A stretch of DNA of 32,000 nt from Flavobacteriaceae bacterium (GCA_965224465.1 OZ245049.1:2820001-2852000); one strand, 5' to 3'; numbered from the stretch's first letter, positions 5,743 to 32,000 are shown. Numbers and translations: made by a program. Notes: generated by a model from the sequence alone, not told the origin.

Positions 5743-6858
5743 ATGGCTATTTTCTTTTCGATTATCGTTGTCTTGCTAATTCTTTTATCATTTATTTTTG
5801 TTTTAGTCAACTTTATTTATTTTCTCTTTAAAGGTCGCATCATAACAAATCGAAAGTTTTTTATAGGTATAGAACTATGGACGGTTGTAATTTTACCAAT
5901 TATTTTTTTGTGTTTTTTTGACTATCCGTTTGAAAATAACTGCTGTAATGATTCTTCCGTTTTTTCACCAGAACACCATCTTGGCATTTATATACTGTTG
6001 CTTGTTTACACTATATCATACACAATTTCCATATTTAGACAACACATTTTACCTCCAATAGCAGAACTACTTTTAAATACATTTTTAATTCTTGGGATCC
6101 TTCTCAATATTTTACTTTGTATTCAGCTGGGACTGTTCTTTTTGGCTATAGGAAACATACCAATAATAATGCTTTTACTAATAAAACTGTATCATCGTCA
6201 GCATTTAATAAAAACATATCTTCAAGAAAATAAAATTGAAGCGACTGGAAAAATAAGTGAATTTTGCTTGGCGATATTAGATTTAAAACCATTACTAAAA
6301 TTCCCGTTATTAGTACTTCTACTAATCCCTATTCTAATTTTACTTTCATTATTTTTAATGATCTTTGGACAAAAACCAGATTCAATTATAAAGGCATTTA
6401 CAGATACTTATAAACACGGGTTTTCACAACTTGACTATATGTGTGATGATTTTTCTTGTCCTGACATTCATTTTCTATGTACAGTTGGTACTCATGGTCA
6501 TAAAGCAATTGTAAAACCAATAAGACTTGGAGAACGCAGAGACCGTACAATTATATGTAACAGGCAGCTACTTATTTCAAATGCATTTGAAGAGCTATTG
6601 CAAGAGAAACAACCTATAACGCATAAATTTATTAGAACAAATTACAATAAGGTTGGAGATTTCGTGCATCGTTATTATTGTTTTTTCAATATTAAGATTG
6701 TTTCAGACGTTGTTTATATCCTGATGAAACCCCTTGAATGGTTTTTCTTATTGATTCTTTATACATTCGATAAGAAACCAGAGAATAGAATTGCAGTTCA
6801 ATATTTAAACAAAAAAGACAGAGCTCAGATTATTGAAAAAGGCTCAACTAGCATTTAG
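5743..6858 (+). CDS. Hypothetical multi-pass membrane protein whose last 5 codons were replaced by the IS1595 insertion
   Basis: 371-aa ORF with several N-terminal TM segments and a Cys/His-rich soluble C-terminal part. Its 3' end runs 18 nt into the IS left end at 6841. Confidence 0.8.
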   Translation: MAIFFSIIVVLLILLSFIFVLVNFIYFLFKGRIITNRKFFIGIELWTVVILPIIFLCFFDYPFENNCCNDSSVFSPEHHLGIYILLLVYTISYTISIFRQHILPPIAELLLNTFLILGILLNILLCIQLGLFFLAIGNIPIIMLLLIKLYHRQHLIKTYLQENKIEATGKISEFCLAILDLKPLLKFPLLVLLLIPILILLSLFLMIFGQKPDSIIKAFTDTYKHGFSQLDYMCDDFSCPDIHFLCTVGTHGHKAIVKPIRLGERRDRTIICNRQLLISNAFEELLQEKQPITHKFIRTNYNKVGDFVHRYYCFFNIKIVSDVVYILMKPLEWFFLLILYTFDKKPENRIAVQYLNKKDRAQIIEKGSTSI

Positions 6859-7931
6859 CGTTGTTATAAAAATTTTGTCATAATCAGTTTGGATATTGTT
6901 ATATATTTTAATTGCATTTGAACGTTTCATTGAGTACTTAAGGACAGTAACTACCCAATTTGATTCTTTACGATATGAATCTTTAATTGTTTGCCAATTT
7001 AAATATTTTTGAAGATATTTTGTGGATACTCCTTTTAATTTTACGTTACAAAATGTCTTTAACCTACTATGCAAACTATTGATGTGCTGAATATGATAAG
7101 TCCCTTTGACTCGTTGGTTTTTACTGCTGTTTAAAACATGATGCTCTAAATGTAAATCCTTACTAAACCCAGTAAAACTACGGTGTCCATCAGAACAAAA
7201 TACGGTTCTATTATCTACCATGCTTCCGATAGTGTTTTTTATATTACTCTTGGTAATTCTGCCCATATTTGTAAATTTAGAAACGCATAGTTCTGCTCTA
7301 TCTTGGGTTGTTAATACCGTTGCGTATTCTTTTGTTATACCTGCCCCTTTCTTTTCGGATCTACTTCTGGGAGGTCTATGTACACACTTTTTACCTTTTT
7401 GACTGTGTAAATAAAAGGTCTCATCACTCTCGGTGATTCCTTTGAAATGACCTGTGGTTTCTTGGAACATAGCAGATAAAAAACGATGACGCCATCTAAA
7501 TGCCGTCCCTGGATCTATGGAAAGATCCTTTCCTGTTTTAACCAAACTTAAATTCAATTCAAGTGTTTTTAAAAAGGCTGGTATGCGTTGCTTTTTGTGT
7601 ATCCCAGCTAGCCAACTGCCGGTAAATTCAGTAAAAGTACGTTTACAATCTTTACATTTATAACGCCTGCTGTTTTTATCTACACCTGCTTTTATATAGT
7701 GATAGCCATTGCAGTAAGGGCATTCACCCCTTCTGTCATCTAAAGCATTCCCTCTCATTTTAATAATATCTACATAACTTCCTGATTTGCAAAGAGACTG
7801 AAATTCTTTAAGCAAAATATCCTGCTTAGTTACATCTAGACAGTCAAAATATTTTAAAATAGCTGAATTATCCATAATGATTCTGTTTTTCAGTAAGTTA
7901 CGAAATAAATACGCTATTTACAAGTTGAGCC
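6841..7931 (-). mobile_element. IS1595-family insertion sequence, 1091 bp
   Basis: Terminal inverted repeats are ggctcaactagcatttagcgt (6841-6861) and the reverse complement of 7911-7931, ggctcaacttgtaaatagcgt, matching at 17 of 21 positions. A perfect 8-bp direct repeat ttgaaaaa flanks it at 6833-6840 and 7932-7939. Confidence 0.85.
6844..7875 (-). CDS. IS1595-family (ISXO2-like) DDE transposase
   Basis: 343-aa ORF with an N-terminal zinc ribbon (CPYCNG..YKCKDCKRTF). The C-terminal part has DETF..., FCSDGHRSF and HIQHINSLHSRLK..GVSTKYLQKYLNW, typical of IS1595 transposases. Confidence 0.85.
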   Translation of the reverse strand: MDNSAILKYFDCLDVTKQDILLKEFQSLCKSGSYVDIIKMRGNALDDRRGECPYCNGYHYIKAGVDKNSRRYKCKDCKRTFTEFTGSWLAGIHKKQRIPAFLKTLELNLSLVKTGKDLSIDPGTAFRWRHRFLSAMFQETTGHFKGITESDETFYLHSQKGKKCVHRPPRSRSEKKGAGITKEYATVLTTQDRAELCVSKFTNMGRITKSNIKNTIGSMVDNRTVFCSDGHRSFTGFSKDLHLEHHVLNSSKNQRVKGTYHIQHINSLHSRLKTFCNVKLKGVSTKYLQKYLNWQTIKDSYRKESNWVVTVLKYSMKRSNAIKIYNNIQTDYDKIFITTLNAS

Positions 7932-14846: not shown

Positions 14847-14920
14847 TCCTCCTTAGCTCAGTTGGTTAGAGCATCTGACTGTTAATCAGAGGGTCCTTGG
14901 TTCGAGCCCAAGAGGAGGAG
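14847..14920 (+). tRNA. tRNA-Asn (anticodon GTT)
   Basis: 74-nt cloverleaf. Acceptor tcctcct pairs with aggagga, with discriminator g. The anticodon loop is ctGTTaa and the T-arm is cttgg-ttcgagc-ccaag. CCA is not encoded. Confidence 0.95.
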
Positions 14921-14930
14921 CAACGTTTCT

Positions 14931-15089: not shown

Positions 15090-15163
15090 TCCTCCTTAGC
15101 TCAGTTGGTTAGAGCATCTGACTGTTAATCAGAGGGTCCTTGGTTCGAGCCCAAGAGGAGGAG
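15090..15163 (+). tRNA. tRNA-Asn (anticodon GTT), second copy
   Basis: Identical 74-nt sequence, 243 bp downstream of copy 1. Confidence 0.95.
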
Positions 15164-15172
15164 CAAGATTAT

Positions 15173-18096: not shown

Positions 18097-18225
18097 TACC
18101 AACAACAATCCAAAATAACCTATATAAATAGAGTCTTTTACGCTCTAGCGATGTTAAAAAACAGAACGACAACAAAGACTATCCTTCCATTTCTAAACCC
18201 TTACTTGGAAATGTATTTGTATTAT
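18097..18225 (+). repeat. MITE-like repeat copy, short form of about 129 bp
   Basis: ataccaacaacaatccaaaataacctatataaatag..acgctctagcgatgttaaaaaacagaacg..gactatccttccatttctaaacccttacttggaaatgtatttgtatta. Its right terminus contains the stop codon of the gene at 18222-19673. Confidence 0.6.
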
Positions 18226-19673
18226 TCAATAGTGTAGCTAAGCCTGTAATTATACCTTACTCTTACATTCCTATTATGTTGTTTTCCTGCTTTCATTTTT
18301 GGTAGTAATTTTATAACCCGAATGGCTTCTTTTGTCAAAAGAGGATGCATCGATCGTACAGAAATGTTTGTGATTAGACCATTTTCATCAATTACAAAAC
18401 GAATCATCATATTTTTTACGCCCTTTGACAAACCTAATTTCTTAGGTACTTCTAAATTAAAATTACGAGCTACAAGATCATTTATAAAAGAATACACACA
18501 CACTTTTTTTCTGGCTATAGTCCCAGTACAAGCTCTAAAAACAGGAGGGATTTCTACCGTAGAAAACGAGAAAATAGTTATCGGCACGTCAAGCTCCTCC
18601 TCTTTAGCAATAGCTTCTGGAATTTCCACTTTCTTTTTTCCAATTTGAACAGTACTGGTTTTAGCCGTGAATTCCAAAGCATCAGACGAAGAAGCATTCC
18701 AATCAATTTTACTAGTGTAAATTATATTTACAGGAAAATATTGATTCCTGATAAAATTTTTCTTCTCACAATACAGGCTATTAAAATCTAAATCATACAG
18801 ATTATTTGCAACCCGGTTCCACAAGAGCAAGTAGGATTTTTGTATTTCTTTATAAACAACTCCCAGAAGATCTCTATTATTTTTATAATTATAAATTTTA
18901 AGATACGCCTTATTTGGATGCTCCGACGATGAAGGATTTTTAGCCCCTTGACAATAATAACATGTTTTTTGACCATACCCTAAGCCTCCATTATTCTCTA
19001 AAAATTCAGTGACATATTTAGAAACCTCTGACAGCTCGATAGATTGGTTATTTATATAAATAGTACTGTCGTTTTTTATGACAATTTTCAGAATATTCTT
19101 TTGTTTGAAAACAATCTTCATTTTTAGGTTCATATTATTTGTTAAGCTTCCATTTTTATCGATAAACAATTCGTTCACCTTATAATCACAATCAAAATTC
19201 AAATCTCTCCCAGCAACTATCATTTTACTGAAATAAGAAACCCGCAAACTATCCCCTATAAACAAGGGCTTGTTTATTAAATAAACAGGGGTATTAAATT
19301 TGGTCAACAAGCAATTAGTTTTATCGAATATAGAAGAGCCCAATTGATTGTTTACCTGTGTAGATCCATAGGTTCTATTTTTCACAACAGCCCCATCCTC
19401 AATACGGCACACCATTGCGGCCTTTTTATTATCACCATTGATTCTCGGCAGCGAAACATCAAGCCCCCCACTTAAACTAGAACTATTAATTACGGATGCA
19501 TCATAAATAAAACCAGCTAGACCAACACGATTTACTAGCGGAATAACGCTTTCAAATATCTTCGAAATATTTTTTGGTTGCGTATCTTTATTTACACCAA
19601 GCACAGACCCATAAGAAACTAAAGGCAAGGATATTAGTAAATACATGATGCTGCTTTTTATTTTATTTTTCAT
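18222..19673 (-). CDS. Secreted protein with a C-terminal TonB-C-like domain
   Basis: 483 aa with an N-terminal signal-like segment (MYLLISLPLVSYGS). The C-terminus, VEIPPVFRAC..C..FINDLVARNFN..GLSKGVKNMMIRFVIDENGLITNISV..LTKEAIRVIKLLPKMKAGKQHNRNVRVRY, fits the flavobacterial TonB C-terminal domain pattern. Confidence 0.8.
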   Translation of the reverse strand: MKNKIKSSIMYLLISLPLVSYGSVLGVNKDTQPKNISKIFESVIPLVNRVGLAGFIYDASVINSSSLSGGLDVSLPRINGDNKKAAMVCRIEDGAVVKNRTYGSTQVNNQLGSSIFDKTNCLLTKFNTPVYLINKPLFIGDSLRVSYFSKMIVAGRDLNFDCDYKVNELFIDKNGSLTNNMNLKMKIVFKQKNILKIVIKNDSTIYINNQSIELSEVSKYVTEFLENNGGLGYGQKTCYYCQGAKNPSSSEHPNKAYLKIYNYKNNRDLLGVVYKEIQKSYLLLWNRVANNLYDLDFNSLYCEKKNFIRNQYFPVNIIYTSKIDWNASSSDALEFTAKTSTVQIGKKKVEIPEAIAKEEELDVPITIFSFSTVEIPPVFRACTGTIARKKVCVYSFINDLVARNFNLEVPKKLGLSKGVKNMMIRFVIDENGLITNISVRSMHPLLTKEAIRVIKLLPKMKAGKQHNRNVRVRYNYRLSYTIE

Positions 19674-19933: not shown

Positions 19934-20100
19934 AAGAACACCAATTACAATCCAAAATGACAGATATAAATAGTTTATTTTACGTTCTAGCGTCGTTAAA
20001 AAACAGAACGATAGCTATGGCTATCCTTCCATTTTTCGCCTAGCTATAACAAAAAATAATTCCATTTCTAAACCGTCATTTGGAAATGTATTTGGTATTA
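19934..20100 (+). repeat. MITE-like element, long form of about 167 bp, inserted in the immunity gene Imm2(B)
   Basis: The intact paralog at 23409-23425 reads gtctttcca|tctaatac with no insert. Here the sequence aagaacaccaatt...aaatgtatttggtatta lies between those points. The imperfect terminal inverted repeats are caccaattacaatccaaaa and the reverse complement taccaaatacatttccaaa. Boundaries are good to about 5 bp. Confidence 0.7.
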
Positions 20101-20706
20101 CACATACCACAAAACAACACTAAAAACGCGAGTAGCTCCTTTAGGCGTATAGGGAACAGGACCATACATAACACTCCATTGTATAGAATCGGTTTCTGTT
20201 AAATTAGAAGAATCAGTACGAGCCAATGTTACTTTTGCTTTTTTAGTAAACCCCAAGACATCTTTATCTACAAGATTGTTTTCTTTGCAATATTCTAGAA
20301 CATCTTCTAACGTGAACGTGTAATATTTGTCGAAGTCCTTAACCTTAGTTATATTTCCATTACTATCATACCATTTAAACAATCCTAAATGAAGGTTTGA
20401 ATCATAGTATTCTCCTTTTTGTATAATAACCCCTATATTATTGAATACGTTAGTTTTACAATACTTTGACTTTTTTCTAGAAACCCTTTCTATATAATAA
20501 TTATCTCTATATTCCTGAGTTACAAAATCTTTATTATGATTATAAAAAGTATAAACAGTTCCTTTTTTGTATTTATTAAATGTACTTATATCAAAAGTAT
20601 CTAATCCTTGAGTCATTGTTGTTGTATTTTGTTGATTTGATTTTTTTTGCCCTTTACAAGACGTGCATGTAAGAGTAATAGCCACTAATATAATTAAAAA
20701 CCTCAT
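20098..20706 (-). CDS. Lipoprotein immunity paralog Imm2(B), C-terminally truncated with its stop supplied by the MITE terminus
   Basis: The real start is the ATG at 20706 (MRFLIILVAITLTCTSCKG). The longer track ORF reads out of frame through the orphan toxin remnant. It ends ...ATRVFSVVLWYV*, whereas the intact paralog continues VVLLYVLDGKTGEE... Confidence 0.7.
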   Translation of the reverse strand: MRFLIILVAITLTCTSCKGQKKSNQQNTTTMTQGLDTFDISTFNKYKKGTVYTFYNHNKDFVTQEYRDNYYIERVSRKKSKYCKTNVFNNIGVIIQKGEYYDSNLHLGLFKWYDSNGNITKVKDFDKYYTFTLEDVLEYCKENNLVDKDVLGFTKKAKVTLARTDSSNLTETDSIQWSVMYGPVPYTPKGATRVFSVVLWYV

Positions 20707-20708
20707 AT

Positions 20709-20897
20709 TTATTCGTTTTTTATTTTGGCATTGTTCCTTAATAGTTCCCATTGTCATTTGTAAAATTGGATGACAGGGAGTGCCGGAGTAATAACATCTG
20801 AATAATCCATAATACAATCGGTTTTACCATAATCATACGTAAAAGCACCAAAATTACTAAAACTATGGTACGCTAAGTTAATATACAGCGGCGGCAA
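20709..20897 (-). pseudogene. Orphan toxin C-terminal remnant CT2(B), further decayed
   Basis: Nearly identical to 24027-24215, but the codon for the first Trp of the KWQW motif is TGA here (plus strand ttgtcatttg versus ttgccatttg). Confidence 0.6.
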
Positions 20898-21547
20898 CTA
20901 ACAAACAAAAACCTCTAGGATAAACGAAATCAAAATCACATTCTCACTGTTTGTTATTTTTTTACATAGATTGTATCATATACTGCTATTGTTCCTGTTT
21001 CGCCTAAAGCATCTTTACCTTTAAAGAGTTTTACTATAAGTTCTTCTCCTGTTTTTCCATCCAAAACAATAACAAAACGACCTTTTACATCCTTATACCG
21101 CCCATTAAAATCAAGTGTCCAAGTAGTTTCACTAGCATCACTCCATCTTGAAATACCAATCACTTGTTTTTGTATGTCTTCTACATCATGATCCATTAAA
21201 TACTTTTTTATATCTTCCCACGAAAACGTATAAGGAGCATCTAAATCTATTTCTTTTATCAATGTTCCTTGTTCGTCGTATTCTTTTAAAATACCTTTTA
21301 TAAAGTCATTCGGAAAAGACAAAAAAGATGATTTTAATTTTCCGTTTTTATAATATTCATAAATCTTTTCAAAACAATCACTTTCTCCCCTATAAAACTC
21401 CCAGTATGAATCCGTTAATTCTTGCTGCCTAATTACTATTCCTTTTTCTATTGAATACGTATACTCTCCAAAACCATTTTTTTTATTTTTAAAACCCTCT
21501 ATATCGAATGTCTTCATTGTTTTACTTGTTTTTATTTTATTTTGACT

Positions 21548-22672
21548 CTTAAATTCAACTAATAAACGCAACTTTTCGATTTGATTCTATGATGGTTATA
21601 TTTTCAAAACAGAAAAGTAGGAAAACCTACCTTTCTTGTCTTGATGGATATGTATCTTACGGTCTCAAATCTCGAAAAAAGAAGTTGTATGAAACACATC
21701 ACCCAAGCGCAAAGATACACAATTTGTTGCATGTTAAAACAAGGTTATAAACAGGTTGAGATAGCAGCTGCTATAGGAAAAGACAAGTCTGTTATTAGCA
21801 AAGAGATTAAGCGTAATTCAGACAAAAGAAATGGAGTTTACAAGCATGAATTAGCCCAAAAAAAGTATGCTAAACGTCATAAAGAAAAGCCTAAAAGAAA
21901 ACGCTTTACAGAAGATATTCAACAAGCAATAGAGTTGTTATTGCGAGACGATTATAGTCCTGAGCAAGTAGTTGGTGTCCTAAAAAAACAAGGTAAAGAA
22001 ACGGTGTCTATTGAGCGTATATATCAGCATATTAGGGAAGACAAGAGGAATGATGGTGATTTACATACACACCTTCGCAGACAGGGAAGGAGATATAGAA
22101 AACGTGGCTCATCAAAGGATTCTAGAGGGGTTATAAAGAATCGTATTAGTATAGAACAACGCCCTGAAGTTGTTGAACAAAGAAATCGATTTGGAGATTT
22201 AGAGGTCGATTTAATCATAGGTAAAAACCATAATCAAGCCATACTTACCGTAAATGATAGAGCTTCTGGAATGCTTAAAATGAAAAAAGTAAGCTCTAAA
22301 GAAGCAGTTGTTGTCACTAAAGCTATCAATGAAATATTAGAAGACTGGAAGCCTTATCTACATACTATAACAGCTGATAATGGAAAAGAATTTGCAGGCC
22401 ATGAGCAGGTTGCAGAAAATTTATGTATTGATTACTTTTTTGCGCATCCATATCACTCTTGGGAAAGAGGATCTAACGAAAATTTAAATGGTTTGATTAG
22501 ACAATATTTTGCCAAAGGAAGTGACTTTACAAACCTAACAGATCAAAGAATCAAAGAGGTAGAAACAAAATTAAATAACAGACCTAGGAAGAGACATAAA
22601 TATCAAAACCCTATATTTGTAATGGAACAATTATTATTTAACTAAAAGTTGCGTTTGTGACTTGAATTCAGC
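21548..22672 (+). mobile_element. IS30-family insertion sequence, copy 1, 1125 bp
   Basis: Boundaries come from comparison with the uninterrupted paralog, which reads tttgactattacaattg at about 24855. Here the sequence is tttgACT[IS]ACTattacaattg, a 3-bp target duplication. The imperfect inverted repeats are cttaaattcaactaataaacgcaactttt and the reverse complement gctgaattcaagtcacaaacgcaactttt. Confidence 0.9.
21689..22645 (+). CDS. IS30-family transposase
   Basis: The likely start is MKHITQAQRYTICCMLKQGYKQVEIAAAIGKDKSVISKEIKRNS, a helix-turn-helix. The DDE core includes GDLEVDLI, ITADNGKEF and WERGSNENLNGLIRQY. The track start at 21641 is a TTG 16 codons upstream. Confidence 0.9.
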   Translation: MKHITQAQRYTICCMLKQGYKQVEIAAAIGKDKSVISKEIKRNSDKRNGVYKHELAQKKYAKRHKEKPKRKRFTEDIQQAIELLLRDDYSPEQVVGVLKKQGKETVSIERIYQHIREDKRNDGDLHTHLRRQGRRYRKRGSSKDSRGVIKNRISIEQRPEVVEQRNRFGDLEVDLIIGKNHNQAILTVNDRASGMLKMKKVSSKEAVVVTKAINEILEDWKPYLHTITADNGKEFAGHEQVAENLCIDYFFAHPYHSWERGSNENLNGLIRQYFAKGSDFTNLTDQRIKEVETKLNNRPRKRHKYQNPIFVMEQLLFN

Positions 22673-22729
22673 ACTATTACAATTGACCATAGTTATTAAA
22701 ACGGCTATTATATATATATTCTTCATAAC

Positions 22730-22888
22730 TTATTCTTTATCTAGGTTATTTTGCATAATACTCCATTGCCAAACCCAAGTACTAATTACAGGTATTAAGT
22801 TTGGACCAATATCAGAATAATCCATAATAGTATCGGTTTAGCCATTTTCATACGTAAAAGAAGCTAAAAATGGACATCTCTGTACATC
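22730..22888 (-). pseudogene. Chimeric orphan toxin C-terminal remnant with an internal stop
   Basis: The reverse strand reads ..FLASFTYENG*TDTIMDYSDIGPNLIPVISTWVWQWSIMQNNLDKE*. The 3' part is nearly identical to the tail of the full toxin. The part upstream of TD.IMDY resembles the CT2 remnant (AFTYDYGKTDCIMDY). Confidence 0.55.
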
Positions 22889-22939: not shown

Positions 22940-23294
22940 CTAATCCTCTCTTGATTTCCACTCTTTATCTATCTTAATTCTTTTGTATTTTCTTGCAACT
23001 TCTTCCCCCGTCTTTCCAAAGAACACCAATTACAATCCAAAATAACCGATATAAATAGTTTATTTTACGTTCTAGCGTCGTTAAAAAACAGAACGATAGC
23101 TATGACTATCCTTCCATTTTTCGCCTAGCTATAACAAAAAATAATTCCATTTCTAAACCGTCATTTGGAAATGTATTTGGTATTACACATACCACAAAAC
23201 CACCCTAAAAACGCGAGTAGTTCCTTTAGGCGTATAGGGAACAGAACCATACATAACACTCCATTGTATAGAATCGGTTTCTGTTAAATTAGAA
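22940..23294 (-). pseudogene. Partial third copy of the Imm2 3' end, also carrying a MITE
   Basis: It encodes SNLTETDSIQWSVMYGSVPYTPKGTTRVFRVVLWYV*, then the MITE, then the LDGKTGEE..SRED* tail. The junction to unrelated spacer is at about 23294 (ttaaattaga|attttgaatc). Confidence 0.6.
23019..23185 (+). repeat. MITE-like element, long form, at the same site as the 19934 copy
   Basis: Near-identical to 19934-20100, with the same flanks (gtctttcca| and |cacataccacaaaac). Confidence 0.7.
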
Positions 23295-23337: not shown

Positions 23338-24024
23338 CTAATCCTCTCTTGATTTCCACTCTTTATCTATCTTAATTCTTTTGTATTTTCTTGCAACTTC
23401 TTCCCCCGTCTTTCCATCTAATACATACAACAAAACCACACTAAAAACGCGAGTAGCTCCTTTAGGCGTATAGGGAACAGGACCATACATAACACTCCAT
23501 TGTATAGAATCAGTTTCTGTTAAATTAGAAGAATCAGTACGAGCCAATGTTACTTTTGCTTTTTTAGTAAACCCCAAGACATCTTTATCAACAATATTGT
23601 TTTCTTTGCAATATTCTAGAACATCTTCTAACGTGAACGTGTAATATTTATTCAAATTATCTTTTTTTACTACAATTCCTTCTTCATTAATATACATATA
23701 ATTACCTATGTAAATATTACCGTAGAATTCACCTTTTTCTTTTACACTTCCATTTTTATAGAATATTTTTTTAACACCGTATTTACTGTCTTTATGAGTT
23801 GTTTTCTCAGAATAATAATCTCCCCAATCTATTTGGCACACTATATTTCCCAAAGAGTTATTAAAATTATATTCATTACCAACTCTATTCTTTTTAAATG
23901 TTTCTATATCTAATACCTCTAATTCTTGAGTCATTGTTGTTGTATTTTGTTTATTTGATTTTTCTTGCCCTTTACAAGACGTGCATGCAAAAGTAATAGC
24001 CACTAATATAATTAAAAGCTTCAT
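23338..24024 (-). CDS. Lipoprotein immunity paralog Imm2(A), intact
   Basis: The start at 24024 gives MKLLIILVAITFACTSCKG. The middle has MORN-like repeats (KKIFYKNGSVKEKGEFYGNIYIGNYMYINEEGIVV). The C-terminus is ..IQWSVMYG...VFSVVLLYVLDGKTGEEV. The start lies 2 nt after the CT2 remnant stop. Confidence 0.8.
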   Translation of the reverse strand: MKLLIILVAITFACTSCKGQEKSNKQNTTTMTQELEVLDIETFKKNRVGNEYNFNNSLGNIVCQIDWGDYYSEKTTHKDSKYGVKKIFYKNGSVKEKGEFYGNIYIGNYMYINEEGIVVKKDNLNKYYTFTLEDVLEYCKENNIVDKDVLGFTKKAKVTLARTDSSNLTETDSIQWSVMYGPVPYTPKGATRVFSVVLLYVLDGKTGEEVARKYKRIKIDKEWKSRED

Positions 24025-24026
24025 AT

Positions 24027-24215
24027 TTATTCGTTTTTTATTTTGGCATTGGCCCTTAATAGTTCCCATTGCCATTTGTAAAATTGGATGACAGGGAGTG
24101 CCGGAGTAATAACATCTGAATAATCCATAATACAATCGGTTTTACCATAATCATACGTAAAAGCACCAAAATTACTAAAACTATGGTACGCTAAGTTAAT
24201 ATACAGCGGCGGCAA
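24027..24215 (-). pseudogene. Orphan toxin C-terminal remnant CT2(A), lacking the HExxH helix
   Basis: (L)PPLYINLAYHSFSNFGAFTYDYGKTDCIMDYSDVITPALPVIQFYKWQWELLRANAKIKNE* aligns with GLYHSFSDSGEFVFEKFKTDNIMDYSDIGPNLIPVISTWVWQWSVMQNNLDKE* of the full toxin. The only start is a TTG directly preceded by an in-frame TAG. Confidence 0.65.
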
Positions 24216-24271: not shown

Positions 24272-24913
24272 TTATTTTTTTACATAGATTGTATCATATA
24301 CTGCTATTGTTCCTGTTTCGCCTAAAGCATCTTTACCTTTAAAGAGTTTTACTATAAGTTCTTCTCCTGTTTTTCCGTCCAAAACAATAACAAAACGACC
24401 TTTTACATCCTTATACCGCCCATTAAAATCAAGTGTCCAAGTAGTTTCATTAGCATCACTCCATCTTGAAATACCAATCACTTGTTTTTGTATGTCTTCT
24501 ACATCATGATCCATTAAATACTTTTTTATATCTTCCCACGAAAACGTATAAGGAGCATCTAAATCTATTTCTTTTATCAATGTTCCTTGTTCGTCGTATT
24601 CTTTTAGATTCCCCAAGGCAAAAGCCTTAGGAAATCTTTTTACAAAGCGTTTTACTTTTCCATTTTTAAAATACTCATAAAAATATTCTAAAACAGAGTC
24701 TACAGATTTTATTGTTTCCCAATATTCATCTTCATTTTCATATTGTTTTACACTTATACCATCATTGGAAGTGAAAAAGTAAGAATTCATCGTTTTGTTC
24801 TTTTTAAAACCCTCTATATCAAATGTCTTCATTGTTTTACTTGTTTTTATTTTATTTTGACTATTACAATTGACCATAGTTATTAAAACGGCTATTATAT
24901 ATATATTCTTCAT
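24272..24913 (-). CDS. Lipoprotein, candidate cognate immunity protein Imm1(A) of the TssD-metzincin toxin
   Basis: 213 aa, starting 3 nt after the toxin stop. MKNIYIIAVLITMVNC is a signal peptide with Cys. It has a MORN-like segment (FYEYFKNGKVKRFVKRF) and a C-terminal ..TTWTLDFNGRYKDVKGRFVIVLDGKTGEELIV. Confidence 0.85.
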   Translation of the reverse strand: MKNIYIIAVLITMVNCNSQNKIKTSKTMKTFDIEGFKKNKTMNSYFFTSNDGISVKQYENEDEYWETIKSVDSVLEYFYEYFKNGKVKRFVKRFPKAFALGNLKEYDEQGTLIKEIDLDAPYTFSWEDIKKYLMDHDVEDIQKQVIGISRWSDANETTWTLDFNGRYKDVKGRFVIVLDGKTGEELIVKLFKGKDALGETGTIAVYDTIYVKK

Positions 24914-24916
24914 AAC

Positions 24917-26800
24917 TTATTCTTTATCTAGGTTATTTTGCATAACACTCCATTGCCAAACCCAAGTACTAATTACAGGTATTAAGTTTGGTCCAATATC
25001 AGAATAATCCATAATATTATCGGTTTTAAATTTCTCAAAAACAAACTCACCACTGTCACTAAAACTGTGATATAAGCCCATTGCATGAAAAGTCTCATGT
25101 ACCAATGTACTATCAGTTAACCCCGGTCGTAAAACAATTACAGAGCGCTTTACCGAAGGAATACCAGACGCTCTACCAAACAACCCTCCTTGTTCTTCGT
25201 CTATAAAAAATATTTTGTAACACTTACTATAATCTTTTTTGTGTTGTGTTTTTAACGCAGAAATTAGATAATCTTGAAAACCATCTGTATCTGCATTAAT
25301 AAGAGTTCCTTTAGGAGCATATTTTTTGTTAAATGGTTTATCTTTAGATAGATTTAAATTCACAGTATCATAGCTAGCATTGGCTAACAACTGACTAAAA
25401 TATTTAGAAAACTCTTTCCGTCTACCTACAGTACTTCCAATCATTTTAGCGCCAATATTAAGTTCTGTAGTAACACTAACAAACACAATGTCTGCTTTAT
25501 AACGATTTGTTTTGTCGTTCGCCAATATTTTTAATTTCCCTGCAAATACGCCGTCGGCTTCTACTTCAATAAATTGGTCTACAGCAAACTCTTTAATGCA
25601 TTTAACAGTTAATCCATCTGCTAATTCCTTTTTACCAACGGTTTTGTGAGACACCTCTGAGCTACTAAGTTTAAAATAAGTTTTATCATATTTATAGGCA
25701 ATCTTTTTAGCGTCAGACCCTTCAATTTCCACCTTTAATGTAAGTGTAGCTTCTTTATATGGAAGTAAAGTTAAGACTGGAACAACGTATTTGTCGTTAG
25801 ACTTTATAGGATGTTGTGGCATTTCAAAATAGTTACCTAATTTTATATATTCTGCATCGTTTTGCACAAAACTTCCTGTAGAATAACTCCCAATAATATC
25901 TTTGTAAAATACATCTCCTTTTTTACCTGTATCAGCCATTCGTAACCAATCGAAACCATAATCTCCATTATAGCTATTTCCAGTTCTAAAATTAACAAGC
26001 ACTTTTGGTGGAGGCACAATTTGCAAGGGTTTACTTTGTTTCTTTTTTCCACTATGACTTACCTTAGCTATAAGTGCGTCCATAGTTGCTTCTTTAAAAT
26101 CTAGCCATTGTTCTTTAATTTCGAGGAACGATAATTCAAAAGATCCGTCTTTGTTTAATAGTTCACTAAAAGACAATTGTTTTACACCTTTTTCAAATTC
26201 GGTTCCATCTTTTTTAGTAATGGTAATGTTTATCGCATTTCCACTTGGATTTTCTATTTGTGTACTTAATGCCACACACTCTGAATAAGTACTTTCTTCT
26301 AAAATTTCCTTGCTTTCTGGATGAATCCAATCCACTTTTGTAATGGTTGGTGTTACTTCTATCCTATTTGTATGTATCATAGGCGCTACGTCTTCCTCTG
26401 GAAAAGTAACCCTCCACGATGCTGAATAAACACCAGAAGACATGGAATCTTCAAACCCCGCAGCGGTCAACGTAAGTGTTTCGGTCATGGGCAGGTTACC
26501 AATGGAAGAAAAATTGGTCTTCCAAGAAACAAGATGCGTATCAAATAGTTTAATTTTTCTAATTCTACCGCCCTCAATAATGGGTTCTAGCAATAATTCT
26601 AGTTGTTTTGTTTGTCTAGAAGCAAACGACCACTCCGTCAAATTGAGATCTTTTCTAGTTTCTAAAACAAGGTCTAGCCCTTTAAATAACGGAATTACTG
26701 AAGGCTTCCCGGTAGCATCAGATCCTTGTTCAAAAACAAGCCTATACCGCAGTACGTTTACTCTTTTTTCGTCGATAATCAACAGTGCTTTAAAGCTCAT
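24917..26800 (-). CDS. Polymorphic toxin with a TssD/Hcp-like N-terminal domain, an unassigned middle region of about 300 aa and a C-terminal metzincin zinc peptidase
   Basis: 627 aa with no signal peptide. The N-terminus MSFKALLIIDEKRVNVLRYRLVFEQGSDATGKPS...LTEWSF...PMTETLTLTAAGF fits the Bacteroidota T6SS-iii tube protein pattern. The C-terminus has HETFHAMGLYH (HExxHxxGxxH) and NIMDY, a candidate Met-turn. Confidence 0.85.
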   Translation of the reverse strand: MSFKALLIIDEKRVNVLRYRLVFEQGSDATGKPSVIPLFKGLDLVLETRKDLNLTEWSFASRQTKQLELLLEPIIEGGRIRKIKLFDTHLVSWKTNFSSIGNLPMTETLTLTAAGFEDSMSSGVYSASWRVTFPEEDVAPMIHTNRIEVTPTITKVDWIHPESKEILEESTYSECVALSTQIENPSGNAINITITKKDGTEFEKGVKQLSFSELLNKDGSFELSFLEIKEQWLDFKEATMDALIAKVSHSGKKKQSKPLQIVPPPKVLVNFRTGNSYNGDYGFDWLRMADTGKKGDVFYKDIIGSYSTGSFVQNDAEYIKLGNYFEMPQHPIKSNDKYVVPVLTLLPYKEATLTLKVEIEGSDAKKIAYKYDKTYFKLSSSEVSHKTVGKKELADGLTVKCIKEFAVDQFIEVEADGVFAGKLKILANDKTNRYKADIVFVSVTTELNIGAKMIGSTVGRRKEFSKYFSQLLANASYDTVNLNLSKDKPFNKKYAPKGTLINADTDGFQDYLISALKTQHKKDYSKCYKIFFIDEEQGGLFGRASGIPSVKRSVIVLRPGLTDSTLVHETFHAMGLYHSFSDSGEFVFEKFKTDNIMDYSDIGPNLIPVISTWVWQWSVMQNNLDKE

Positions 26801-26805
26801 ATTTG

Positions 26806-28014
26806 TTAGTTTAGAGAGCTGTCAAGCAGCAGAGATTCCGAATAATTATCTAATAGTTTTTTACATTCTTTAATTAATGCTTCTTCCGCATAGCTTTTTT
26901 GAAGCTCGTTAAAACACACATCCGCTTGCGCTAGATTGTTTTTTTCTAACCAAACTCTTAAAGCGATATATTGAAAATAAATAAACTCATCCAACCTTAA
27001 AAACAAATCTCTATCAGGGCAAATTTTCCTAAAGTCCAAATGCTCGTTAAGTATGCCAGTTATCTGATCTAAAATCACCTCTTTTTCTGTTCTTAATTGT
27101 TCTGACGACAAAAGCAACTCAGAAATACGAATTTTTGAAATCAAAAAACCAGGAAACTCTTTATACAAAACACTTACAGTTTCAACATATTCTGTATTCA
27201 TATTAAGATGTCGGAAGTATTCGCACAGTAAATTTTGAAAATGAGGAACCTCCAGGTTTTTATCTGCCTGAATTTGCATTTCAACTAACAAATTAGAAGA
27301 CGGCTTGCTTAATGCGTAAATTCTTTCAGAAAAATCTTCAATTTGTTCAATCTGAACATTGGTTAATTTATAGTAAGGATAAATTCTCCTCTTGTCGTCC
27401 GTCACTTCAATTAAAGTAGTTTCAATTTTTAGTTTTTCCCTTCGACAATCTGTTATTCGTTGTTTCGCTTGAATATGAGCGGGTTCGTTTTCGATTAATT
27501 TAGCCAATAAATGCTCCGTTTTAACAGCATCCTCCAACCTATCTACATTTAAAAAATAATCAATTCTAAAAAGAAAAAAATTCACGATTTCAGAAATATG
27601 AAATTCAGTTTTCCCCGGAAAAGCGGTACTTATTTCTAAATTCTCACCTAAAATAGCCCTTACTTTGGCATGTTCACCTTTGACTCCATGCAGCTGAGCC
27701 ATGCTTAATTTAGCAAAAAACTCATTCGGGAATTTTTGATAAAAAACGCTAGCATGCCCAAAGGCAACTTCGTTTTCTCCTTTCTGGATATACTCATGAA
27801 CAAGCTGCTTATAAAAGAAAGGAATTTTCGGAAACTTCTGTATATACTTTTTTAGGTTCTCTCTGTTTTTAGTTCTTCCAAAATCCTGAATAGATTCAAT
27901 CATTAAATTTTTAATATGTGGAAAATGATTTTTTAAGAAATAATCATCATCATCTATCACAGTAAGCTCCGTTCTGTCTTTAAAAAGCACCTTCTTATTG
28001 GGTATAATTTTCAT
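26806..28014 (-). CDS. Hypothetical all-helical protein made of two tandem homologous halves, first gene of the toxin operon
   Basis: It ends 5 nt before the toxin start. The preferred start is the ATG at 28014 (MKIIPNKK..); the track start at 28101 adds 29 aa. The halves align as LTVIDDDD..IESIQDF..IPFFYKQLVHEY..VFYQKFPNEFFAKLSMAQL versus LIEVTDDK..IEQIEDF..VPHFQNLLCEY..VLYKEFPGFLISKIRISEL. Confidence 0.8.
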   Translation of the reverse strand: MKIIPNKKVLFKDRTELTVIDDDDYFLKNHFPHIKNLMIESIQDFGRTKNRENLKKYIQKFPKIPFFYKQLVHEYIQKGENEVAFGHASVFYQKFPNEFFAKLSMAQLHGVKGEHAKVRAILGENLEISTAFPGKTEFHISEIVNFFLFRIDYFLNVDRLEDAVKTEHLLAKLIENEPAHIQAKQRITDCRREKLKIETTLIEVTDDKRRIYPYYKLTNVQIEQIEDFSERIYALSKPSSNLLVEMQIQADKNLEVPHFQNLLCEYFRHLNMNTEYVETVSVLYKEFPGFLISKIRISELLLSSEQLRTEKEVILDQITGILNEHLDFRKICPDRDLFLRLDEFIYFQYIALRVWLEKNNLAQADVCFNELQKSYAEEALIKECKKLLDNYSESLLLDSSLN

Positions 28015-28856
28015 ACTATTTTTTGTTGTTTTTATTTTTTGTGTTTTAAATACGATTGACCTAGACAAACGACATGGGCTGTTACGAATATAAATATACA
28101 CCTAATATCTGTATAGAGAAACGCTCTAAAAAAACACAGTATTCGCTTTTTTGTCCTTTAAAAAAATCAATTATGAATGGCTCTAATCAAAGCAAATATC
28201 ATTCCAATAACCGTATAAATCACGTATTATTAGTTTTATAAGTGTTAAAAAACAGATTCATCACAAAAGCTATCCTAAGGCATTCGGATGAGACAGACCA
28301 ACAAACAGCCACAGAACCAACTTTTAGGATAGCACTCCCGTAATCCAATATACGAATCGTGTTTATTCGGTTTTACACATGAAAATTGATTTAAAAACGA
28401 CCTGTATTTTTTATCTCAACTCAACAAAAGGACGCTTTTAAAAAGGACTGACGCTTTCAAATAAGCCCATCCACAACCTCATCCAAGGACAAGTGGTAGG
28501 CTTCTGAAGTAATAATTTCTATGTAACATCAGATTCACAAGAAAAAGAATCTTCCATAAGGGATGCTGTCAAAAAAACAAGAAAAATGATTAGATCAAAA
28601 CAATATTTCTAAAAGCAATAACCTCGAGGCAAGCCAACGAGACATGAAAAAGAAAAAACCTTAATCATTTTAATGAAAGCATAGGTAAATTAAACCCACT
28701 GGTGCAATTAAAAAAAACGTTAGTAAAAGTTAAACACAAGGGTTCTTGCTCTTAAGACCACTCTGTTTCTCAACTAATTTACATGACTTTTAACATGTTA
28801 AAAAACTTAAATATTTCTTAAATTTGTAATAATTCTTAATTCTATTTTCATGCATT

Positions 28857-29981
28857 CTTAAATTCAACTAATAAACGCAACTTTTCGATTTGATTCTATG
28901 ATGGTTATATTTTCAAAACAGAAAAGTAGGAAAACCTACCTTTCTTGTCTTGATGGATATGTATCTTACGGTCTCAAATCTCGAAAAAAGAAGTTGTATG
29001 AAACACATCACCCAAGCGCAAAGATACACAATTTGTTGCATGTTAAAACAAGGTTATAAACAGGTTGAGATAGCAGCTGCTATAGGAAAAGACAAGTCTG
29101 TTATTAGCAAAGAGATTAAGCGTAATTCAGACAAAAGAAATGGAGTTTACAAGCATGAATTAGCCCAAAAAAAGTATGCTAAACGTCATAAAGAAAAGCC
29201 TAAAAGAAAACGCTTTACAGAAGATATTCAACAAGCAATAGAGTTGTTATTGCGAGACGATTATAGTCCTGAGCAAGTAGTTGGTGTCCTAAAAAAACAA
29301 GGTAAAGAAACGGTGTCTATTGAGCGTATATATCAGCATATTAGGGAAGACAAGAGGAATGATGGTGATTTACATACACACCTTCGCAGACAGGGAAGGA
29401 GATATAGAAAACGTGGCTCATCAAAGGATTCTAGAGGGGTTATAAAGAATCGTATTAGTATAGAACAACGCCCTGAAGTTGTTGAACAAAGAAATCGATT
29501 TGGAGATTTAGAGGTCGATTTAATCATAGGTAAAAACCATAATCAAGCCATACTTACCGTAAATGATAGAGCTTCTGGAATGCTTAAAATGAAAAAAGTA
29601 AGCTCTAAAGAAGCAGTTGTTGTCACTAAAGCTATCAATGAAATATTAGAAGACTGGAAGCCTTATCTACATACTATAACAGCTGATAATGGAAAAGAAT
29701 TTGCAGGCCATGAGCAGGTTGCAGAAAATTTATGTATTGATTACTTTTTTGCGCATCCATATCACTCTTGGGAAAGAGGATCTAACGAAAATTTAAATGG
29801 TTTGATTAGACAATATTTTGCCAAAGGAAGTGACTTTACAAACCTAACAGATCAAAGAATCAAAGAGGTAGAAACAAAATTAAATAACAGACCTAGGAAG
29901 AGACATAAATATCAAAACCCTATATTTGTAATGGAACAATTATTATTTAACTAAAAGTTGCGTTTGTGACTTGAATTCAGC
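28857..29981 (+). mobile_element. IS30-family insertion sequence, copy 2, 1125 bp
   Basis: It has the same ends and the same internal ORFs as copy 1; the 334-aa translations are identical. It is flanked by a 3-bp direct repeat att at 28854-28856 and 29982-29984. Confidence 0.9.
28998..29954 (+). CDS. IS30-family transposase
   Basis: The translation is identical to that of 21689-22645. Confidence 0.9.
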   Translation: MKHITQAQRYTICCMLKQGYKQVEIAAAIGKDKSVISKEIKRNSDKRNGVYKHELAQKKYAKRHKEKPKRKRFTEDIQQAIELLLRDDYSPEQVVGVLKKQGKETVSIERIYQHIREDKRNDGDLHTHLRRQGRRYRKRGSSKDSRGVIKNRISIEQRPEVVEQRNRFGDLEVDLIIGKNHNQAILTVNDRASGMLKMKKVSSKEAVVVTKAINEILEDWKPYLHTITADNGKEFAGHEQVAENLCIDYFFAHPYHSWERGSNENLNGLIRQYFAKGSDFTNLTDQRIKEVETKLNNRPRKRHKYQNPIFVMEQLLFN

Positions 29982-30100
29982 ATTTAAAATGATAGACATT
30001 GAGAATATCGTTCTTTTAAAAGTCCAATTCACACAATTCTATTCCCTATATCAAATAGAATTGTATTTAGAATTAGAGGCTATTTATCCTATATTACATT

Positions 30101-32000
30101 ATGAAAATAACTGTTATTTTTTATTGTTTGACACTTGTACTATGCCAAGAATACGGCTTTGCTCAATCGCAGAATCCTGCATTAAAAAACAAATTAAACT
30201 TTAAACATTTATCTGTAGCAGAAGGCCTGTCTCAACGATCCGTAACAACGATTTTACAGGATAAAAAAGGCTATTTATGGTTTGGCACTAGAGATGGATT
30301 AAACAAATACGACGGCACCAATTTTGTGACCTATTCCTACAACTCAGAAGACCCAAATAGCCTGAGTCATAGTTGGGTGACTTCCCTATTTGAAGATGCG
30401 TTGGGTAACTTATGGGTCGGAACTAGAAATGGGCTTAACAAATACATCCCAAAAACAAACAGTTTTAAGCATGTTTATTTTTCATCTTTTGACGACAATC
30501 AAATTACAGCTATTTGCCAAGTTTCCGATAGCATGCTATGGGTTGCCACAACAAAAACGATTAAGACCATTGAGATTGCTACTATTCTTGAAACCTTTAC
30601 AAAAAACAACTACGATGTTCTTAATTTTGACTTTGATGATACTCGGGTTAATTATTTTTTAAAAGCATCAAATGGTGACTTATGGATTGCAACTTCAAAA
30701 AACATATACGCTCTAAATTTTCAAAAAAAAACAACCAATAGATTCAGTTATCCAACACAAAATGATCTAACTATAAATTCAGAAAAAACACCTTGTTTCT
30801 ATGAAGATAAAGACCACACTATTTGGCTAGGATACACAAAAGGATTGGCGGTATTTAATAAAAAAACAAAAGAGTTTTCTGATTTTTCGCTTGAGAATGG
30901 TACCACTATAAATTCTGTAATACGATCTGTCTGTCAAGATTCGTCCGGCACTTTATGGATTGGAGCATATACAGGTCTGTACCTATTGGATTTAAAAAAC
31001 CAAACGCTAGACCATATTACACATTATGATAGTAACTCTAAAAGTTTAAGTCAGAATTCTATTTATAAAATAATAAGAGACACCAGAGGAGATATTTGGA
31101 TTGGAACTTGGGCAGGCGGAGTCAATTATTTTAATAAAAACTACAATTCGTTTAAGCAGTTTTTTGTAGGCGAACACAAGAGCATGTTAAATTACAAAGT
31201 AGTAAGTGCAATTGTAGAGGACGCATCGGAAAACTTTTGGATAGGAACAGAAGGAGGAGGTTTAAATTATTTTAATAGCGCAACAGGAGAATTTAGCTAT
31301 TATAAAAACAAGCCCTCAGATGCAAATAGCATTAGTTCAAATAATGTAAAATCAATCCTGCGAACATCCGCTGGCAATTTGTGGATTGGTACACACGATA
31401 AAGGACTTAATTTTTTTAATACACAAAACTATACATTTAACAATTTCAATAACTATTTAGTGGATGGTAATACGCCCATATCAAATTACAGTATCTCATC
31501 GCTCTACGAGGATAAAAATAAAAACATTTGGATTGGGACATTGGCAGGAGGCTTACTATTTTACGATATAAAAACACAAGCGTTTTCTAAAATCATATCT
31601 GTAGTTGCAATCAATTGTTTGGTACCTTGTAAAGACACTAACTTTTTGTTATTTGGAGGCGTCAATGGGCTGATCAAAATAGATATAACTTCTAAAAAAA
31701 CAAAAGAAATTCATTTTGTAAAGAACACCCAAAACTATGATCCTAGGAAATTTGTGAATACCGTATATGTAGATCCAAAAAATAATTATTGGATCGGTAC
31801 AGGAGGTAATGGCCTCTTTTATTACAACACAAGCAATGGAGTATCCATAAAATATGGCATCGATGATGGTTTACCAAACGAAACTATATATGGTATTCTG
31901 CCCGATAATTACAATTGTTTATGGCTCAGTACAAACCAAGGACTAAGCAGATTTAATTTAGAAGATTATAAAATTAAGAACTATAATTTGTTAGATGGCT
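30101..32000 (+). CDS. Hybrid two-component sensor (HTCS-type), N-terminal periplasmic propeller region only; the 3' end lies beyond the window
   Basis: This gene is absent from the ORF track because it has no stop inside the window. I translated it by hand: MKITVIFYCLTLVLCQEYGFAQS (signal), then LSVAEGLSQRSVTTILQDKKGYLWFGTRDGLNKYDG. After that come at least 9 repeats of the ..(I/L)W(I/V)GT..GL..(Y/F).. two-component-regulator propeller motif, in one frame to position 31999. Confidence 0.85.
   Translation, partial: MKITVIFYCLTLVLCQEYGFAQSQNPALKNKLNFKHLSVAEGLSQRSVTTILQDKKGYLWFGTRDGLNKYDGTNFVTYSYNSEDPNSLSHSWVTSLFEDALGNLWVGTRNGLNKYIPKTNSFKHVYFSSFDDNQITAICQVSDSMLWVATTKTIKTIEIATILETFTKNNYDVLNFDFDDTRVNYFLKASNGDLWIATSKNIYALNFQKKTTNRFSYPTQNDLTINSEKTPCFYEDKDHTIWLGYTKGLAVFNKKTKEFSDFSLENGTTINSVIRSVCQDSSGTLWIGAYTGLYLLDLKNQTLDHITHYDSNSKSLSQNSIYKIIRDTRGDIWIGTWAGGVNYFNKNYNSFKQFFVGEHKSMLNYKVVSAIVEDASENFWIGTEGGGLNYFNSATGEFSYYKNKPSDANSISSNNVKSILRTSAGNLWIGTHDKGLNFFNTQNYTFNNFNNYLVDGNTPISNYSISSLYEDKNKNIWIGTLAGGLLFYDIKTQAFSKIISVVAINCLVPCKDTNFLLFGGVNGLIKIDITSKKTKEIHFVKNTQNYDPRKFVNTVYVDPKNNYWIGTGGNGLFYYNTSNGVSIKYGIDDGLPNETIYGILPDNYNCLWLSTNQGLSRFNLEDYKIKNYNLLDG

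Follow-up and report, generated by a model that had tools for sequence, protein, structure and literature searches.

A predicted specialised Hcp with a metzincin-type toxin module and candidate lipoprotein immunity genes in a Flavobacteriaceae genome

The gene described here lies on the minus strand of a stretch of 32,000 nucleotides from a Flavobacteriaceae bacterium (GCA_965224465.1, OZ245049.1:2820001-2852000). This whole stretch is called the window, and all positions are counted from its first letter. At 24917-26800, an intact open reading frame (ORF) of 627 amino acids, with an ATG start and a stop codon at 24917-24919, encodes what is predicted to be a specialised ("evolved") Hcp effector, a type VI secretion system (T6SS) tube protein that carries a putative zinc peptidase at its C-terminal end. 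A preliminary description, made from the sequence, had already proposed such a fusion, as a candidate effector of a T6SS-iii of Bacteroidota. The length of the ORF agrees with that description, as does the absence of a signal peptide, none being visible by inspection of MSFKALLIIDEKRVNV.

Domain layout of the Hcp fusion and the genes downstream

Residues 1-129 (26414-26800) constitute a TssD/Hcp tube-protein domain. They match the Bacteroidota Hcp model PF17642 (TssD) over profile positions 1-127 of 128, with 82.7 bits where 25.8 is the cut-off (E 2.7e-23), and Flavobacterium johnsoniae Hcp1 (PDB 6bdc) is matched by sequence at E 3.9e-6. A full-length AlphaFold2 model was built on 33 sequences; its mean predicted local distance difference test score (pLDDT) is 88.4, with values of 73-89 in the Hcp region. 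The best Foldseek matches of this model, all Hcp proteins from organisms with a T6SS-iii, are 8gra_B (Hcp-VgrG-PAAR of Bacteroides fragilis), 6bdc and 7yw0_A, with E values of 5e-9 to 4e-8, a target template modelling (TM) score of 0.85-0.87 and a root mean square deviation of 2.3-2.5 Å. The TssD/Hcp-like character that had been read from the N-terminus is therefore borne out both by the family profile and by the beta-barrel fold.

For the roughly 300 residues in the middle of the protein no family had been proposed. This region can now be divided into two parts, the second of which still has no family match. After a linker (residues 136-147, pLDDT below 50), which is the sole disordered stretch of the full-length model, comes a beta-sandwich (Ig-like) spacer at residues ~150-257 (26030-26353), with an all-beta secondary structure in the model. 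Among 84 related toxin loci that were searched with tblastn, the spacer is confined to the Hcp-fusion loci, 18 in number. It is followed by a conserved beta-rich domain (residues 261-430; 25511-26020), modelled with a pLDDT above 90, in which G279, G282, D284 and R287 (GxxGFDWxR) are invariant and N428 is nearly so. Residues 261-430 have no match in Pfam, NCBIfam or the PDB sequences, and after the Hcp matches the fold search of the full-length model returns generic tandem beta-sandwich proteins, with nothing specific for residues 150-430. The beta-rich domain accompanies the catalytic domain in nearly all family matches (profile positions ~30-395).

The C-terminal part (residues 431-627; 24920-25510) is predicted to be a metzincin-type zinc metallopeptidase domain. 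The signature HETFHAMGLYH (HExxHxxGxxH) noted earlier is found at residues 568-578 (25067-25099), and the accompanying NIMDY is part of TDNIMDYS (residues 593-600; 25001-25024), with a putative Met-turn at M597 and an invariant tyrosine, Y599, two residues on. M597 sits 19 residues past the third zinc-binding histidine, in line with the earlier description, and aligns with the methionine of "..RLM" in ADAMTS-5 in a profile alignment. Among 139 diverse relatives, H568, E569, H578 and Y599 are present in all, H572 and D598 each in 138, and G575 in 105; position 597 is methionine in 124 and leucine in 13.

A separate AlphaFold2 model of residues 428-627, built on 139 sequences, reaches a pLDDT of 97.2 and a predicted TM score of 0.93. 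With it, Foldseek yields 37 matches at E<=1e-3, starting from E 5e-5 and with a query TM of 0.5-0.6; they include fragilysin (BFT), B. fragilis MPII, ADAMTS1/4/5, ADAM8/33, a snake-venom metalloproteinase and PAPP-A. Metzincins account for 49 of the 50 fold matches listed for this domain, so that the fold predicted for the last ~200 residues is the one that had been expected. The order of its elements (strands with a backing helix between them, then the HExxH helix and, past the methionine, a C-terminal helix) presumably fits a metzincin catalytic domain, and the M-D-Y arrangement is, as we take it, reminiscent of the Met-turn and tyrosine of astacins and serralysins. The families Tox-MPTase1-5, HopH1 and PVC-metallopeptidase were considered as well, and none was matched in the family searches.

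On the same strand, the toxin gene is followed in order by immA1, tip B, immB1, fragments, tip A', immA2 (split by an insertion sequence (IS) of the IS30 family), tip B' and immB2. The first of these, immA1 (24272-24913), encodes the predicted cognate immunity lipoprotein of 213 amino acids and starts 4 nucleotides past the toxin stop codon. The downstream genes had been described as encoding exported lipoproteins, and lipoprotein-type leaders, MKNIYIIAVLITMVNC and MKLLIILVAITFACTSC, are indeed present. A homolog of immA1 stands directly 3' of the toxin gene in 71 of the 84 loci, and at least 63 of these 71 homologs have a hydrophobic leader ending in cysteine, commonly ..SC[KN][SA]Q.

The remainder of the array consists of three pairs of an orphan toxin tip and an immunity gene. 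In the first, tip B (24027-24215; ..LAYHSFSNFGAFTYDYGKTDCIMDYSDVITPALPVIQFYKWQWELLRANAKIKNE), with homology to the toxin from the third zinc-binding histidine onwards, is paired with immB1 (23338-24024), which encodes a second lipoprotein of the immunity family (228 amino acids; 173.8 bits with the immunity profile). In the second, the degraded tip A' (22730-22885), which has an internal stop and shares 98% identity with the main toxin's 3' end over its last 110 nucleotides, precedes immA2 (20954-22726), a second immA-type copy scoring 175.7 bits, of which 18 5' codons lie at 22674-22726 and the rest at 20954-21546. The third pair comprises tip B' (20754-20897), a second version of tip B that carries a nonsense mutation (100% identical over 78 nucleotides), and immB2 (20098-20706; 143.4 bits), a C-terminally truncated immB-type copy without the ..LDGKTGEE.. 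tail.

The tips start at ..YHSFS, where the third zinc ligand stands, which suggests that earlier replacements arose by crossing-over within the stretch of DNA coding for the conserved zinc motif. The tail type of tip B is that of P0029 and of the Hcp fusion of Aquimarina muelleri, and immB1 shares 42% identity with the gene that stands directly 3' of this A. muelleri fusion. Toxin tail type and immunity type thus co-vary, since tip B goes together with the immB type both here and in A. muelleri.

As for the immunity proteins themselves, 18 of 40 family members match the MORN_2 repeat (best E 1.4e-7). Their C-terminal segment (..W.i....i.lDg.TGe.i..; ..VIVLDGKTGEEL..) gives a weak alignment to the two PepSY repeats in PDB 9vy3 (E 0.0048 for the whole sequence), and one member has a Pfam PepSY match at E 0.0037. 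PepSY domains are propeptide inhibitors of M4 metallopeptidases. A PepSY-like inhibitor domain in the immunity proteins is therefore possible, as a lead rather than a result. An ORF at 333-1046 was tried as a fifth immunity paralog and gave no match to the immunity profile. A 95-nucleotide intergenic repeat occurs in three copies that are 83-86% identical (18098-18192, 19940-20034 and 23025-23119), two of them 3' of immB-type copies and one 3' of a gene with a TonB_C domain (18222-19673); it has no Rfam match.

The element that splits immA2 after codon 18 is a copy of 1127 bp on the plus strand (21547-22673), with imperfect terminal inverted repeats and a transposase ORF at 21641-22645 (NCBIfam transpos_IS30, E 1.2e-86). 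A second copy, 100% identical and in direct orientation, lies at 28856-29982 (plus strand), and the two bracket a 6.2-kb toxin segment in the manner of a composite transposon.

The toxin-module family and its link with T6SS-iii

Homologs of the toxin, 32 in number and 31-63% identical, are found in marine Flavobacteriaceae; hosts of full-length Hcp fusions are Bizionia (63%), Lacinutrix, Aquimarina, Cochleicola, Maribacter, Tenacibaculum, Aggregatimonas and Pseudotamlana. The module formed by residues 261-627, for which Pfam and NCBIfam hold no curated model, is far more widely distributed. A profile of these residues retrieves 1430 clusters (formed at 50% identity) with a threshold of E<=1e-3 and 509 with one of E<=1e-30; with few exceptions the matches span both domains, and relatives are encoded in 180 stretches of species-representative genomes. 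Without Hcp, the module occurs in Chryseobacterium, Chitinophaga, Flavobacterium, Pedobacter, Prevotella and Bacteroides.

The carriers of the module point to type VI secretion, as had been proposed for the gene in the window. Among 178 collected members, 33 are fused to TssD, 22 to VgrG (Phage_GPD plus Phage_base_V) and one to the PAAR-like DUF4280, and 102 are stand-alone or have a short N-terminus. Stand-alone toxin genes usually lie where a vgrG gene has just ended; such a gene is present in 57 of the 84 loci, and ClpV, TssO, TssR and TssD were each seen in 8 to 21 of them (tblastn). In Empedobacter tilapiae, for example, the order is ClpV, TssO, TssO, PKD, TssR, TssD, VgrG and, 3 nucleotides after vgrG, a stand-alone toxin gene, itself followed by five paralogous genes of ~207 amino acids.

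In A. muelleri, an Hcp-metzincin fusion of 708 amino acids is encoded within a core T6SS-iii cluster. There, the genes for a TssB-like protein, TssC, a gp25-like TssE, a TssF-like protein, ClpV, a TssG-like protein and TssN lead up to the Hcp-toxin gene, which is followed by three immunity genes and then by those for a TssK-like protein, two TssO, PKD, TssR and TssD.

T6SS-iii genes were also sought elsewhere in the genome to which the window belongs. SucA, SucB, an S9 peptidase, a major facilitator superfamily transporter and immA of the window are exact matches to proteins of one contig of 5,241,564 bp. A TssC (P0213, PF17541), 84% identical to that of A. muelleri, and three TssD paralogs are recorded, from the same sources, on a contig of exactly this length, which is taken as the same chromosome as that of the window. 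Because P0213 lies on what would be the same chromosome, the genome does not appear to be devoid of a T6SS.

The three TssD paralogs (P0180, P0181 and P0183; 229-231 amino acids) are 62% identical to the Hcp domain of the window and have no toxin. Each has a C-terminal extension of ~100 amino acids that, by inspection only, resembles the beta-sandwich spacer; they could be adaptor-like minor Hcps. They should not be mistaken for a census, as the search with the Hcp domain alone returned 5 proteins and is not a survey of structural Hcps.

Two Hcp-metzincin homologs as well as TssC were observed in Tenacibaculum maritimum, a pathogen of fish (loci L082 and L083; proteins P0010, P0014, P0233 and P0236), and one Hcp-toxin homolog is present in at least 22 contigs of this species longer than 1 Mb. 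The T. maritimum genome paper does not mention a T6SS, and a review of secretion systems in fish pathogens lists the species with a type IX secretion system only (PMC8714846), a listing on which tssC and the Hcp toxins have a bearing.

Proposed action, rival explanations and known systems

The gene quite probably codes for a specialised Hcp effector that belongs to a T6SS-iii of Bacteroidota and is equipped with a metzincin toxin module and with lipoprotein immunity. The analysis confirms the observation and largely supports its earlier interpretation, for which all the computational checks suggested beforehand gave favourable results. The effector-immunity assignment is made with high confidence. 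The periplasmic site of action is put forward with moderate confidence, and its sole basis is the exported lipoprotein nature of the conserved downstream gene.

The scheme that we infer covers secretion, incorporation into a ring, catalytic activity, the periplasmic site, the substrate and inhibition by the lipoprotein. The TssD domain would take its place in an Hcp ring of the inner tube. Since an extension of 500 amino acids cannot fit six-fold inside the lumen, it is probable that the fusion enters just a single ring or a small number of rings close to the spike. Contraction of the sheath would then expel the fusion protein, in which the linker and the beta-sandwich spacer would carry a two-domain toxin module, consisting of residues 261-430 and of the metzincin zinc endopeptidase (431-627). 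The peptidase would act in the periplasm of an adjacent Gram-negative cell, where it would cleave an envelope component, either a protein or a peptidoglycan peptide. The lipoprotein encoded immediately downstream would protect sister cells, probably by binding and blocking the peptidase.

Several points weigh against this interpretation. The window itself contains no T6SS structural gene, and apart from the TssD paralogs the apparatus of its genome is known from TssC only, by way of the contig identity assumed above. The toxin locus is an IS-flanked orphan island, as it is in Bizionia, T. maritimum and Aquimarina sp. MAR_2010_214. With 55 kDa in three domains, the extension is large for Hcp-borne cargo. 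Finally, the curated peptidase families score below their cut-offs with the window protein (Astacin 12.7 bits versus 22.5, Reprolysin_4 12.4 versus 22; Pfam), and the clan assignment therefore rests on the motif and on a predicted fold for which the query TM is modest. Of 33 family members, 29 do match Reprolysin_4 with an E of at most 0.1 (1.7e-5 for the best), a group to which the window protein, at E 0.12, does not belong; compared with PDB sequences, the toxin-module profile gives motif-level matches only (E ~0.1). To judge from the sequence comparisons, the peptidase should be treated as a separate family inside the metzincin clan and not as M12A astacin or M12B adamalysin/reprolysin.

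With regard to the substrate, the analysis leans towards protein. The structural neighbours (fragilysin, ADAM/ADAMTS, snake-venom metalloproteinases and PAPP-A) are all protein-cleaving endopeptidases, no peptidoglycan-binding domain family was detected in sequence-model searches of the toxin and its family, and to our knowledge the known peptidoglycan metallopeptidases have other folds (LAS/M23/M15, M14). These observations make it rather unlikely, though by no means far-fetched, that after the same delivery the metzincin-like domain cuts peptide stems or cross-links of peptidoglycan as an endopeptidase or amidase, with residues 261-430 binding the sacculus. Lipoprotein immunity fits such a periplasmic target, and a role as peptidoglycan hydrolases has been suggested for Salmonella SPI-6 candidate effectors that have Reprolysin_4 and are accompanied by signal-peptide-bearing immunity proteins (PMC10469887). 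Furthermore, the T6SS cargo effector T6EC11 of Chryseobacterium sp. OV279 is reported to be toxic in the periplasm only and to degrade peptidoglycan (bioRxiv 10.64898/2026.09.28.754971); it may overlap with the toxin-module family.

The genetic surroundings could also be read as those of an inert remnant, an IS-flanked orphan Hcp fusion that is no longer loaded or expressed and is kept as a recombination reservoir. No T6SS gene lies near the locus in the window, identical IS30 copies bracket the toxin and one of them disrupts an immunity paralog, and the neighbouring toxin tips and immB2 are degraded. However, the 627-codon ORF and its immunity gene are intact, the catalytic and Hcp-domain features are all conserved, intact homologs are usually orphans in other genomes too, and tssC is present in the genome. 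Decay of the whole locus is accordingly held to be improbable.

The closest folds, those of the host-acting proteases BFT/fragilysin and the ADAMs, might suggest a toxin aimed at eukaryotic hosts or extracellular matrix by fragilysin- or ADAM-like shedding, with a downstream lipoprotein that is not an immunity protein. This is very unlikely, as in 71 of 84 loci, from Bacteroidota of soil (free-living), sea and gut, the gene right after the toxin belongs to one and the same family, and as orphan tip plus immunity cassettes and tandem immunity paralogs are a signature of interbacterial toxin-immunity systems. There is equally little to recommend a metallopeptidase that processes or releases itself, or one that matures or releases a real toxin located in residues 261-430: releasing metallopeptidases such as PVC-metallopeptidase are known in polymorphic toxins (PMC3482391) and residues 261-430 are as conserved as the catalytic domain and have an invariant motif of their own, but the peptidase occupies the usual C-terminal toxin position, the orphan tips paired with immunity genes are pieces of the peptidase and not of 261-430, and immunity types co-vary with the type of peptidase tail.

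The specialised Hcp effector favoured here can be set beside several known systems. Evolved Hcps are established in Enterobacteriaceae, as Hcp-ET1 to Hcp-ET5 (Ma et al. 2017, as cited in PMC13213661). In GA2 loci of Bacteroidales, they have been reported on bioinformatic grounds (Coyne et al. 2016, PMC4714493) with toxin domains of deaminase, RNase or unknown type, and for that reason the Hcp-toxin architecture itself is not new to the phylum. As in these proteins, an N-terminal Hcp and a C-terminal polymorphic toxin are combined in one polypeptide with an immunity gene directly downstream, and the Hcp is, as in the Bacteroidales, of the T6SS-iii type. In contrast to the nucleases, deaminases, RNase and unknown domains carried by evolved Hcps, the toxin of the window is a two-domain module that ends in a metzincin; its extension comprises ~500 amino acids in three folded domains, its hosts are marine Flavobacteriaceae and its locus is usually an orphan island.

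The preliminary description had also drawn a parallel with a VgrG-fused metallopeptidase of Pseudomonas aeruginosa. VgrG2b is toxic in the periplasm only, is neutralised by the lipoprotein PA0261 encoded downstream and is possibly directed against lipoproteins (Wood et al. 2019, PMC6899460). The parallel is an analogy: in both cases, a structural component of the T6SS is fused to an HExxH zinc peptidase (a predicted one in the window) and a lipoprotein is encoded downstream. It is not one of homology, because the fold of VgrG2b is thermolysin-like (PMC6899460) and VgrG2b is thus not a relative of the toxin; its chain is absent from the PDB sequence-search matches and from the top 50 fold matches of the catalytic domain.

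With fragilysin (BFT), MPII, adamalysins, ADAM and ADAMTS, which provide the best structural matches to the predicted model, the toxin shares HExxHxxGxxH and a downstream methionine. It differs from them in having no signal peptide, in the spacing of the methionine, 19 residues after the third histidine and followed by an invariant D-Y, and in its presumed delivery by a T6SS. Profragilysin is not in the top 50 fold matches of the full-length model, and the companion domain has no detectable similarity to the fragilysin prodomain.

Polymorphic toxins with Tox-MPTase1-5 or HopH1 tips are small zincins, distantly related to Wss1 and usually found on Rhs proteins (Zhang et al. 2012, PMC3482391). 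Like these toxins, the module occurs on alternative trafficking domains, is followed by immunity genes and leaves accumulating orphan cassettes; unlike them, it is a metzincin of adamalysin-like type, for which the beta-rich partner is obligatory. No account of a family of metzincin effectors of the T6SS in Bacteroidota was found in the open-access literature.

More tentatively, the gene could be regarded as one member of an unnamed, phylum-wide superfamily of T6SS toxins with at least 1430 clusters. Such a superfamily would be defined by an adamalysin/fragilysin-like metzincin with an obligatory GFDWxR partner of 170 amino acids, by three carriers, by immunity that is specific for the part after the third histidine and by PepSY-like inhibition. 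The 261-430 domain might serve as an integral (pro)domain that keeps the enzyme latent, or else in substrate recognition, and the module can ride all three expelled components of the T6SS, namely Hcp, VgrG and a PAAR-like domain. To judge from the orphan tips, diversification and immunity specificity may map to the sub-domain after the third zinc histidine. Should this extended interpretation prove true, it would reveal both a way of inhibiting metzincins and a periplasmic target that are new.

The T6SS-iii effectors of Bacteroidota beyond the gut Bacteroidales are almost unstudied, and the toxin-module family abounds in lineages from the sea, the soil and the mouth or gut as well as in fish pathogens. 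A metzincin that acts as an interbacterial toxin in the periplasm would add a protease class to the T6SS arsenal, and its substrate could reveal an exposed, essential process of the envelope. A three-domain Hcp cargo of 500 amino acids also sharpens the question of how the tube makes room for evolved Hcps, for which the heteromeric minor Hcps of Bacteroidales are relevant (PMC13213661). As the general architecture and logic are already known, the gain is incremental and not conceptual. A specialist will find the architecture unsurprising; the experimental interest lies in the size of the family, its three T6SS carriers, the breakpoint in the zinc motif and the possible PepSY-like inhibitor.

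Other features of the window

An ORF of 431 amino acids on the minus strand (26806-28101) ends 5 nucleotides before the toxin start and was considered as an adaptor or chaperone gene. Neither Pfam nor NCBIfam nor, at a meaningful level, the PDB offers a match for it, and among the 84 related toxin loci it has no homolog; it is probably unrelated to the toxin system. A scan for sigma-70 promoters gave 23 sites where 23.6 are expected by chance, and no terminator was found on the minus strand; Bacteroidota promoters differ from this model, and the scan is therefore uninformative.

A transposase gene of the IS1595/ISXO2-like type lies at 6844-7875 (minus strand), and a transposase of the same family is encoded directly upstream of the Hcp toxin of Aquimarina sp. 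MAR_2010_214 (L085, 8848-9846). The Rfam matches in the window are two tRNA genes only, both tRNA-Asn(GTT) on the plus strand (14847-14921 and 15090-15164), 243 nucleotides apart and downstream of sucA. At 31095-31568 (plus strand), four units of 42 nucleotides with a spacing of 141-147 nucleotides encode a FWIGTxxGGxNYFN-like motif, in what looks like a repeat protein that runs off the end of the window.

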